Shown: piece after piece, positions 1-648 of the stretch | Layout of the letters: every line of letters begins with the position of its first letter | Numbering within the stretch: the stretch's first letter is position 1 | Source: Escherichia coli | GTDB lineage: Bacteria; Pseudomonadota; Gammaproteobacteria; Enterobacterales; Enterobacteriaceae | Reading direction: 5' to 3' (one strand) | Length of the DNA: 648 nt | NCBI RefSeq assembly: GCF_003334315.1 | Contig: NZ_QOWR01000130.1 | Made by a program: the position numbers and the translations under genes | Notes under the pieces: model-generated | What the model was told of the DNA's origin: nothing | The model's input: only the letters and a program-made list of their open reading frames with translations | Databases searched by the model: none

Positions 1-438
1 AGGCCGCAGTCGGTAACCTCGCGCATACAGCCGGGCAGTGACGTCATCGTCTGCGCGGAAATGGACGAACAGTGGGGCTATGTCGGGGCTAAATCGCGCC
101 AGCGCTGGCTGTTTTACGCGTATGACAGTCTCCGGAAGACGGTTGTTGCGCACGTATTCGGTGAACGCACTATGGCGACGCTGGGGCGTCTTATGAGCCT
201 GCTGTCACCCTTTGACGTGGTGATATGGATGACGGATGGCTGGCCGCTGTATGAATCCCGCCTGAAGGGAAAGCTGCACGTAATCAGCAAGCGATATACG
301 CAGCGAATTGAGCGGCATAACCTGAATCTGAGGCAGCACCTGGCACGGCTGGGACGGAAGTCGCTGTCGTTCTCAAAATCGGTGGAGCTGCATGACAAAG
401 TCATCGGGCATTATCTGAACATAAAACACTATCAATAA
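1..438 (+). CDS. insB: IS1 transposase InsB reading frame (C-terminal part of the InsAB' frameshift-fusion transposase); 5'-partial at window edge
   Basis: Frame 1 is open from position 1 ([145 protein letters not shown]) with a TAA stop at 436..438. The ATG at 61 reported by the ORF track is an internal methionine. From established knowledge, InsB is expressed as InsAB' via a -1 frameshift at a site just upstream of this window, not from that ATG. Confidence 0.92.
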
Positions 439-453
439 GTTGGAGTCATTACC
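431..453. repeat. IS1 terminal inverted repeat (right end, IRR), ~23 bp
   Basis: The IS1 terminus GGTAATGACTCCAACTTATTGAT appears as its reverse complement at the element boundary. The exact inner limit of the IR is approximate. The insB stop codon lies inside it. Confidence 0.8.
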
Positions 454-648
454 CCAAACATCATATAATAATTGATATAAATTATACAAACCCAAAGGAT
501 CCATCCTTATTATCGGATTCAGTGGGTAATTATACAGGTTCCATCCCCCCTCCAGCCCAATGGGGTCTTGTGTAATATACCGCCCCTGCAACGGATCGTA
601 GTACCGGTGACGGTTATAGTACAGCCCTGATTCCTCATCATGCTGCTG
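454..648 (-). pseudogene. Rhs-family (YD-repeat / RHS repeat-associated core domain) protein, 3' end of core plus first 11 codons of the C-terminal variable region; interrupted by IS1, 5'-partial at window edge
   Basis: Minus-strand translation from 648, with no stops: [65 protein letters not shown]. This contains the hallmark Rhs core terminus ([10 protein letters not shown]...GRYI(T/S)QDPIGL...NLYxYxxNP....DPxGL), with [10 protein letters not shown] encoded at 487..516. The frame runs directly into IS1 sequence at 453. GC-rich core-like codon usage at 541..648 gives way to very AT-rich sequence at 454..~500, as expected at a core/toxin boundary. Confidence 0.85.

Follow-up and report, generated by a model that had tools for sequence, protein, structure and literature searches.

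A probable Rhs effector gene of the Escherichia coli RhsE locus truncated by IS1, and the predicted fold of the toxin domain of its intact copies

The window, the whole 648-nucleotide stretch of Escherichia coli DNA analysed here, carries the truncated end of an Rhs gene set against one end of an IS1 element. In the explanation that very probably holds as a whole, positions 454–648 are the 3' end of the vgrG-linked Rhs effector gene of the E. coli RhsE locus, and the AT-richness of the last part of this gene is the compositional signature of a horizontally exchanged toxin/immunity cassette. Identity and truncation, taken jointly, are close to certain: IS1 interrupts the Rhs gene exactly after codon 11 of the toxin domain.

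Organisation of the window

The minus-strand frame is open from position 648 down to 454, and its translation yields the end of an Rhs core, two DPxGL motifs and a stub of 11 residues (Table 1). The core portion present amounts to the last 54 codons (162 nt), with both DPxGL motifs intact, and the boundary motif PxxxxDPxGL can be recognised. The two DPxGL motifs are 17 residues apart, the arrangement described for the Rhs aspartyl autoprotease, in which the second motif provides the catalytic aspartate and the chain is cleaved after it; both this definition and mutagenesis of the motifs come from work on a homologous Rhs protein (PMC8636562). Over positions 568–648, paralogous cores are 83 to 88% identical to the window. 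The spacer between the DPxGL motifs varies among Rhs paralogues. A search of positions 454–540 against Rfam gave a single match, with an E-value of 0.73, which is noise, and no promoter-like site was found in that interval. A terminator-like hairpin at 457–440 was rejected as such: it is made up of the IS1 end plus 4 nt of target DNA.

Table 1. Features of the window, with their positions, the strand on which each is read and the evidence or remarks.
Feature	Position	Strand	Evidence or remark
IS1 element, 3' 453 bp	1..453	+	NCBIfam NF033558 transpos_IS1, E 3.8e-40; InsB C-terminal frame to 438
IS1 terminal inverted repeat	431..453	-	Minus-strand reading is GGTAATGACTCCAACTTATTGAT; adjoins the stub directly
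IS1-encoded read-through tail of the truncated Rhs ORF	373..453	-	26 codons and a stop at 375-373
11-codon stub, toxin-domain residues 1-11	454..486	-	15% GC; start of the 144-residue RhsE-locus C-terminal domain
Second DPxGL motif (DPLGL), with the catalytic Asp; functional core/toxin boundary	487..501	-	Sequence; definition from PMC8636562
17-residue spacer between the DPxGL motifs	502..552	-	GC declines from about 540, inside the spacer
First DPxGL motif (DPIGL)	553..567	-	Sequence; PMC8636562
End of the conserved GC-rich Rhs core	568..648	-	ORF continues past the window edge

The intact gene and the identity of the stub

Each of the 40 E. coli chromosomes listed contains the 195 bp of positions 454–648 with 100% identity, and an identity of at least 99% is seen in 110 records. 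CP53 and UMNK88 have this sequence within an uninterrupted gene for a 1402-residue 'RHS element core protein', in the gene order of the RhsE locus, yncG-yncH-vgrG-rhs-dsORF-e4-(old IS1 remnant)-ydcC(ISAs1)-pptA. There, the stub runs in frame into HDDSYGTSS... and the protein ends in ...CRTWQECWVN, which gives a C-terminal domain of 144 residues, corresponding to residues 1259–1402 of the UMNK88 protein WP_000014895.1. Intact Rhs proteins with the same stub, which the sequence-only reading had proposed to look for, therefore exist, and intact homologues with an unrelated sequence after DPLGL were not seen for this core variant. The intact homologue contains DUF6531, at least nine RHS_repeat matches and the RHS family PF03527 (E 2.6e-18), the latter at residues 1154–1190, about 50 residues upstream of the first codon of the window; a Pfam PAAR_motif match is weak (E 0.28). 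In all five RhsE-locus copies of the cassette that were opened, vgrG is located immediately upstream.

In Citrobacter sedlakii, Enterobacter and further assemblies the stub is kept as YNLY[Q/E]L[L/I]YDVWHDDSYGTSS, while the core ends that precede it differ among the homologues (NPVMKIDPLGL, DPIQQIDPLGL and NPILQIDPLGL). Paralogous E. coli Rhs cores match the query as far as DPLGL (position 160 at most) and never into the stub. In K-12 the same chromosomal site has a different tip, in which DPMGL is followed directly by DAIENMTSGG... and then by ydcD. Since the stub is conserved across differing cores and absent from paralogous cores, it is the true start of an exchangeable toxin module. The earlier claim of a horizontally exchanged Rhs module at this junction is borne out, the stub travelling with its domain and the K-12 tip being another one; exchange of Rhs tips has been described as C-terminal displacement (Jackson et al. 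2009, PMC2935791; see also PMC8636562). That the stub would identify a lost module stands in part: the module is the RhsE-locus tip that comes with dsORF-e4, but calling it lost goes beyond the evidence, as the window does not include the other end of the IS1.

It has to be considered whether the AT-rich stretch might be non-coding junk or a deletion scar beside the IS1, as it is 33 nt long, extremely AT-rich and abuts a mobile element. However, the identical 33 nt stand in frame within uninterrupted 1402-residue reading frames in more than 1300 genomes, and other genera have kept the stub peptide along with the domain that follows it, making this origin exceedingly improbable. The window copy could also be a dissociated (orphan) Rhs tip located downstream of a main rhs gene, given that Enterobacteriaceae commonly have orphan tips in which the hyperconserved core end is retained (PMC2935791) and that only 162 nt of core are visible. 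The distribution of the cassette argues against this. Of 5426 complete E. coli genomes, 1373 contain the 842-bp cassette formed by the toxin and immunity genes, 1361 of them with an identity of at least 99%, and O157:H7 and O111 strains are among the carriers. It is essentially single-copy, occupying 1400 places in the 1373 genomes, and at every locus inspected it is part of a full-length vgrG-linked gene. An orphan tip is thus improbable, and the end of a full-length effector gene is the preferred identity.

Base composition around the core/toxin boundary

The sharp compositional shift that had been noticed is real: the GC content is 55.6% at 541–648 and falls to 23.4% at 454–500, for which about 20% had been estimated by eye; it is 29.9% over 454–540 and 15.2% over 454–486. 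Compared with 55% GC in the rest of the window, the low GC content has a binomial probability of about 1e-5 to 2e-6, and an equally AT-rich 47-mer occurred in only 3 of 2000 shuffles of the window. Positions 487–540 have a GC content of 39%, that is, the drop begins about 54 nt upstream of the cleavage motif, so 454–540 consists of 54 nt of core end and 33 nt of toxin domain. The proposal that this whole interval is the start of the C-terminal domain accordingly holds for the 33 nt at 454–486 and not for the 54 nt at 487–540.

The trough in GC content extends from about 410 to 500, reaching beyond 454 because the IS1 end is also AT-rich. Position 454 is the last base before the terminal inverted repeat of the IS1 and not a compositional edge. 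This contribution of the IS1 end, with the lowest-GC 87-mer of the window starting at 410, could suggest that the trough reflects only the AT-rich IS1 terminus and is uninformative about the Rhs gene. Such a reading is very improbable, as 454–500 lies outside the IS1 and is as AT-rich in intact genes that have no IS1 (30% GC at 7151–7250 of locus L002). The intact homologue shows the same gradient at full scale, its GC content falling from 63% (core) through 41% (C-terminal domain) to 28% (downstream ORF), the last two values showing that the entire cassette is AT-rich, and no intact homologues with a normal GC content over this stretch were seen. The signature of an exchanged cassette is therefore retained as the explanation.

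Truncation of the gene by IS1

Positions 1–453 match thousands of plasmid copies of IS1A and IS1B with 98 to 99.6% identity, and the IS1A copy of E. coli EC09 with 99.8% identity. The plus-strand ORF at 61–438 is the C-terminal part of InsB and scores 138 bits with NF033558, against a cut-off of 100. The terminal repeat, ...AAGTTGGAGTCATTACC, finishes at 453; we take this end of the element to be IRR. An identical terminal sequence borders complete IS1 copies in L003 and L004, each with 9-bp target duplications. The Rhs gene of the window is an ordinary IS1-inactivated gene, a known kind of disruption, with a canonical IS1 end against a very AT-rich target. The sole oddity compared with other IS1 insertional inactivations is that a second strain has been hit at the same nucleotide in the opposite orientation.

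The truncated Rhs protein could still be made and cleaved, in which case the cleaved product would only be a 37-residue nonsense peptide, of 11 native and 26 IS1-encoded residues. With nothing but this peptide to release from the Rhs shell, the toxin would therefore be dead in the window copy. The 26-codon IS1 tail recurs as the end of many ORFs that happen to be fused to an IS1 terminus.

The remainder of the cassette may persist beyond the far end of the IS1. A simple insertion would give, in this order, the IRL of the IS1, the 9-bp repeat of GATGTTTGG, then CATGATGATTCATATGG... and dsORF-e4, and an IS1-mediated deletion would give an unrelated flank without duplication, as in AMSCJX03. The junction between the stub and the IS1 has no contiguous match among 5426 complete E. 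coli genomes, where the two-piece matches H56 and H57 are other IS1 insertions and not the window junction. The exact 42-nt junction is absent from the genome contigs searched and the exact 30-nt junction from metagenome contigs. With the fusion tail as query, all protein matches were unrelated IS1 read-through ORFs or further Rhs-IS1 fusions, and an assumed full-length fusion protein had no exact counterpart on record.

IS1 prefers AT-rich target DNA, and the extremely AT-rich patch of 33 nt (15% GC) is probably the reason why the element landed there. In AMSCJX03, an IS1 is located at the identical nucleotide, directly after ...GATGTTTGG, in the orientation opposite to that of the window copy. 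At its other end this IS1 adjoins the 3' portion of ydcC, without a target duplication, and 2186 bp have been deleted (L002 7196–9381), comprising the remaining toxin sequence, dsORF-e4 and the 5' portion of ydcC. A derivation of the window junction from the AMSCJX03 junction by inversion between IS1 copies was rejected by reasoning: inversion keeps the same IS1 end on the stub, and the two insertions are therefore independent. EC09 has an IS1 within the codons for the dsORF-e4 signal peptide, flanked by the duplication TTTATTGTG. In PEC240 an ISAs1 fragment interrupts the toxin after about 68 residues, and an IS1 with the duplication CTTAACATG is also present. IS1 read-through fusions occur at other Rhs tips too (P0053, P0067 and P0143).

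Sequence and predicted structure of the toxin domain

The 144-residue domain has no match in Pfam, even at E<=10, none in NCBIfam and none among the PDB sequences, either with phmmer and the single sequence or with the family profile. A HMMER scan of 1.84e9 cluster representatives gave 23 matches at E<=1e-3. Of eight distant ones that were read, all but a single low-complexity match are Rhs C-termini or short fragments; Pseudomonas is the origin of one of the eight, and further assemblies or metagenomes are the origin of the others. A second, profile-based database search added no distant members. In composition the domain is 16% glycine, with abundant serine, valine, alanine and threonine. 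The invariant or near-invariant positions are mostly glycines, together with four cysteines (C54, C60, C135 and C141), and no obvious catalytic set of His, Glu, Asp or Ser is found among the conserved positions. The cysteine positions satisfy 54+141 = 60+135, as would be expected if antiparallel strands were linked by two cross-strand disulfides, with a predicted pairing of C54 with C141 and of C60 with C135. Among the distant members, one is without both C60 and C135 and another, a fragment, is without C60 only; the paired loss is, in these sequences, a weak sign of disulfide pairing.

The AlphaFold2 model, calculated from an alignment of 12 sequences, has a pLDDT of 77 and a pTM of 0.65. It contains eight beta-strands after an N-terminal helix of low confidence, which is the stub region. 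When the model is compared with the PDB using Foldseek, VapD ranks first and VapB and VapG have the highest probabilities (0.84); E-values are between 0.02 and 0.24, none reaching 1e-3, and TM-scores between 0.3 and 0.5. A Vap-like eight-stranded beta-barrel is, judging from this model, a likely but not established fold for the domain. The classification of the full domain that had been proposed earlier thus yields no family in Pfam or NCBIfam, but it does yield a predicted eight-stranded fold.

In AFDB50, Foldseek finds the same predicted fold at the C-termini of Rhs/YD-shell proteins of many genera, among them Hafnia, Buttiauxella, Salmonella, Yokenella, Neisseria, Diaphorobacter, Luteibacter and Treponema. 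It is also present in one exoprotein of the ShlA/FhaA type and, more distantly, in SYLF/Ysc84 domains. Judging from these model-based matches, the domain may belong to a wider, as yet unnamed structural class of polymorphic-toxin tips. A term search of the 2012 polymorphic-toxin catalogue gave no comparable beta-barrel toxin domain, and the literature searched contained nothing linking Rhs to Vap, SYLF or DUF4019. It also contained no experiment on the RhsE toxin linked to dsORF-e4, the only mention being an in-silico note on the RhsE protein of EDL933 (PMC7216683).

The downstream immunity candidate

An ORF of 131 residues, named 'RHS element protein dsORF-e4' in RefSeq and recorded as WP_000759875.1, begins 11 nt after the toxin gene, and its N-terminus, MKKYIFLVLFLLCGCSP, is a lipoprotein-type signal. 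Seven cassettes were read, with eight downstream ORFs, the toxins of L011 and L012 being identical. Homologous downstream ORFs are present in six of the seven, from E. coli, Citrobacter, Enterobacter, Pseudomonas and further assemblies; in the seventh, L010, whose toxin (P0039) diverges most, an unrelated membrane protein is encoded downstream instead. Signal peptides with a lipobox are found in six of the eight ORFs, in Enterobacteriaceae and on two metagenome contigs, while the Pseudomonas ORF is homologous without having a canonical lipobox. An exported lipoprotein partner is typical for T6SS effectors that act in the periplasm.

When six homologues are compared with DUF4019 (PF13211), two match at E<=1e-3 and four at E<=0.1, with a best E-value of 1.4e-7. 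The E. coli dsORF-e4 itself matches DUF4019 weakly (E 3.5e-3) and scores about equally with DUF5851 and DUF3887. These sequence matches place the immunity candidates weakly in DUF4019. In many strains, O157:H7 included, dsORF-e4 is split by a change from A8 to A7 while the toxin gene is apparently intact. A split dsORF-e4 beside an intact toxin gene is awkward, fitting poorly with a potent self-targeting toxin.

Proposed mode of action

The exported lipoprotein partner, the four conserved cysteines and the missing catalytic residues are the reasons for the following putative mechanism. The T6SS would deliver the Rhs cocoon into the target cell and the aspartyl protease would free the toxin domain after DPLGL, in the target periplasm. 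There, the freed domain would oxidise and fold, and then perturb a membrane. In sibling cells, the periplasm-facing lipoprotein dsORF-e4 would neutralise it. The parts of this proposal differ in strength. A periplasmic site of action is somewhat favoured. Membrane permeabilisation by the domain is a tentative suggestion that we would put below even chances. The complete proposal, of a new class of T6SS/Rhs cargo in which a cysteine-stapled Vap-like eight-stranded beta-barrel folds in the target periplasm, kills non-enzymatically through permeabilisation or depolarisation of a membrane and is countered by a DUF4019-type lipoprotein, is more doubtful still.

The intact domain might instead be an enzyme or act in the cytoplasm, for example as a nuclease or NADase, and not be a barrel acting in the periplasm or on a membrane. 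Characterised Rhs tips are mostly enzymes (PMC8636562, PMC6730261), and the fold assignment comes from a model of medium confidence. Nevertheless, the cognate downstream proteins have lipoprotein signal peptides and hence are exported from the cytoplasm, the conserved positions are mainly glycine and cysteine without a His/Glu/Asp/Ser catalytic set, the enzymatic toxin families in Pfam and NCBIfam give no match, and four conserved cysteines would suit an oxidising compartment. We consider an enzymatic or cytoplasmic toxin unlikely, though with appreciable weight, and the periplasm-acting barrel is kept as the working proposal.

Comparison with known systems

The window gene shares with other E. 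coli Rhs elements the GC-rich core, the PxxxxDPxGL boundary, the AT-rich tip and the small downstream ORF. The RhsE locus of K-12, with its rhsE pseudogene and ydcD, is located at the same chromosomal site (yncH ... ydcC-pptA); the window differs from it in having the tip that is linked to dsORF-e4, cut after 11 codons by IS1. The RhsE protein of EDL933 (z2257) is encoded downstream of vgrG2 and has been assigned a putative immunity protein of 61 residues with a lipoprotein signal, EDL933_2188 (PMC7216683). By description it is alike: O157:H7 cassettes are 99.5 to 99.6% identical and have their downstream ORF split in two, and the 61-residue lipoprotein-signal protein fits the split dsORF-e4 of O157:H7 genomes.

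The Vap proteins of R. equi (PF05526; PDB entries 4cv7, 5aeo and 4csb) have only about 10% sequence identity to the toxin domain, which has no Pfam match and therefore does not belong to the Vap family by sequence. VapA, VapB, VapD and VapG, which an actinobacterial intracellular pathogen secretes or displays on its surface, act on host vacuoles, and they are neither T6SS cargo nor provided with an immunity partner. Membrane activity and neutralisation of vacuolar pH have been described for VapA and VapN, with much lower activity for VapB (PMC10100859). By analogy, this membrane activity would be a precedent for such a fold acting on membranes, not a proof. Against the analogy stands that VapB, the best structural match, is reported to have only weak membrane activity (PMC10100859).

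Tse5 of Pseudomonas aeruginosa is an Rhs protein with a pore-forming C-terminal toxin (PMC10684867). It resembles the toxin proposed here in being a Gly-rich, non-enzymatic tip that is delivered by an Rhs protein and is proposed to act on the target membrane, and thus offers a precedent for the mechanism. No sequence similarity to Tse5 or to the glycine-zipper toxins was detected, and no Pfam Gly-zipper match. Glycine-zipper toxins are helical. The 144-residue domain differs from helical toxins of the Tse5-CT/Ssp6 type in that it is predicted to be all-beta, apart from the low-confidence N-terminal helix; [GAS]xxx[GAS] strings do occur in it, but within predicted strands. A further difference from Tse5 is that the immunity candidate of the RhsE-locus toxin is a lipoprotein. 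A paper on the pore-former Ssp4 proved to be unrelated.

Significance

Taken by itself, the window shows a routine pseudogene in which IS1 has inactivated an Rhs effector gene, and its annotation should state this and name the cassette that was hit. The several IS1 events at this one locus, two of them at the same nucleotide, indicate that AT-rich Rhs tips attract IS-mediated decay. The disrupted module is a very common toxin/immunity pair of the E. coli T6SS that has neither a family name nor a Pfam model, and it offers an experimental lead, both the predicted fold and the predicted site of action being testable. If the toxin is indeed Vap-like and acts in the periplasm, a beta-barrel class would join the short list of non-enzymatic T6SS toxins, and roughly one in four complete E. 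coli genomes would contain a new class of cargo. It would also provide a bacterial model for the membrane action of Vap-type barrels, and would link the so far unexplained action of the R. equi Vap proteins on membranes to a fold of antibacterial toxins that occurs at the Rhs C-termini of many genera.

Insertion sequences in the toxin cassette

In E. coli strain AMSCJX03 (NZ_CP058355.1), an IS1 lies at the same nucleotide as the IS1 of the window, at the end of the 11-codon stub with which the Rhs toxin domain begins. It is inserted in the opposite orientation, with its IRL end adjoining the stub, while its far end is fused to the 3' part of ydcC. Between these points 2186 bp have been deleted, comprising the remaining toxin sequence, dsORF-e4 (the downstream immunity-type reading frame) and the 5' part of ydcC; a target duplication is absent. 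IS1 has thus inserted twice, independently, at one position. This suggests that the opening stretch of the toxin domain, at 15% GC, is a hot spot for insertion.

Coordinates of features at the RhsE loci compared
Feature	Strain (locus)	Coordinates
IS1 junctions (window counterpart, 453/454)	AMSCJX03 (L005)	6077/6078 and 6845/6846
IS1 in dsORF-e4	EC09 (L003)	6529-7296
Cassette disruption by ISAs1 fragment carrying an IS1	PEC240 (L004)	6240-7244
IS1-family transposase remnant, short, diverged, just 3' of dsORF-e4	UMNK88 (L002)	8026-8124
Same remnant	CP53 (L001)	8025-8123
A8 tract of dsORF-e4	UMNK88 (L002)	7775-7782
A7 counterpart	CP53 (L001)	7775-7781
RhsE locus with rhsE pseudogene	K-12 MG1655 (L013)	3891-6405

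EC09 and PEC240 show additional, independent damage to this cassette. An IS1 flanked by the 9-bp duplication TTTATTGTG interrupts the part of dsORF-e4 that encodes the signal peptide in EC09. The PEC240 toxin domain breaks off about 68 residues in, at an ISAs1 fragment that in turn contains an IS1 with the duplication CTTAACATG. The IS1-family remnant is present in both intact loci opened (CP53 and UMNK88) and also in EC09, which has gained a newer IS1 as well. The remnant suggests that an IS1-family element inserted long ago at the 3' edge of the cassette, possibly in connection with the arrival of the cassette.

Three other Rhs genes (products P0053, P0067 and P0143) are fused to the same 26-residue IS1 read-through tail as in the window. 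One is cut 8 residues past the DPLGL of a different tip, another inside the spacer between DPxGL motifs. IS1 insertions seem to be recurrent at Rhs core/tip junctions.

The A-tract of dsORF-e4

In CP53, loss of one nucleotide from the A-tract splits dsORF-e4 into reading frames of 61 and 69 amino acids, while the toxin gene is intact. Judging from split annotation and a match length of 841 nucleotides, the same loss occurs in O157:H7 and other strains, again with an intact toxin gene, and the 61-residue frame agrees with the 61-residue "immunity protein" reported for EDL933. The change may reflect on/off switching by strand slippage, or else immunity in early decay.

Predicted fold of the toxin domain

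Among AFDB50 matches to the AlphaFold2 model of the toxin domain (mc022ed04f92b), the predicted barrel recurs, at 14-28% identity, at the Rhs/YD-shell carboxy-termini of many genera, including Buttiauxella, Salmonella, Yokenella, Neisseria, Diaphorobacter and Treponema, and in one ShlA/FhaA-type exoprotein. These matches also indicate a resemblance of the predicted barrel to SYLF/Ysc84 lipid-binding domains. Polymorphic-toxin tips with the modelled barrel may form a structural superfamily that has no name.

The RhsE locus of K-12

At the RhsE locus of K-12 MG1655, where vgrG is absent, only a 5'-truncated rhsE pseudogene is found. Its tip differs, with DPMGL followed by DAIENMTSGG..., and overlaps ydcD. 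The truncated gene with another tip at the same locus shows that a single chromosomal site undergoes both tip replacement and decay.
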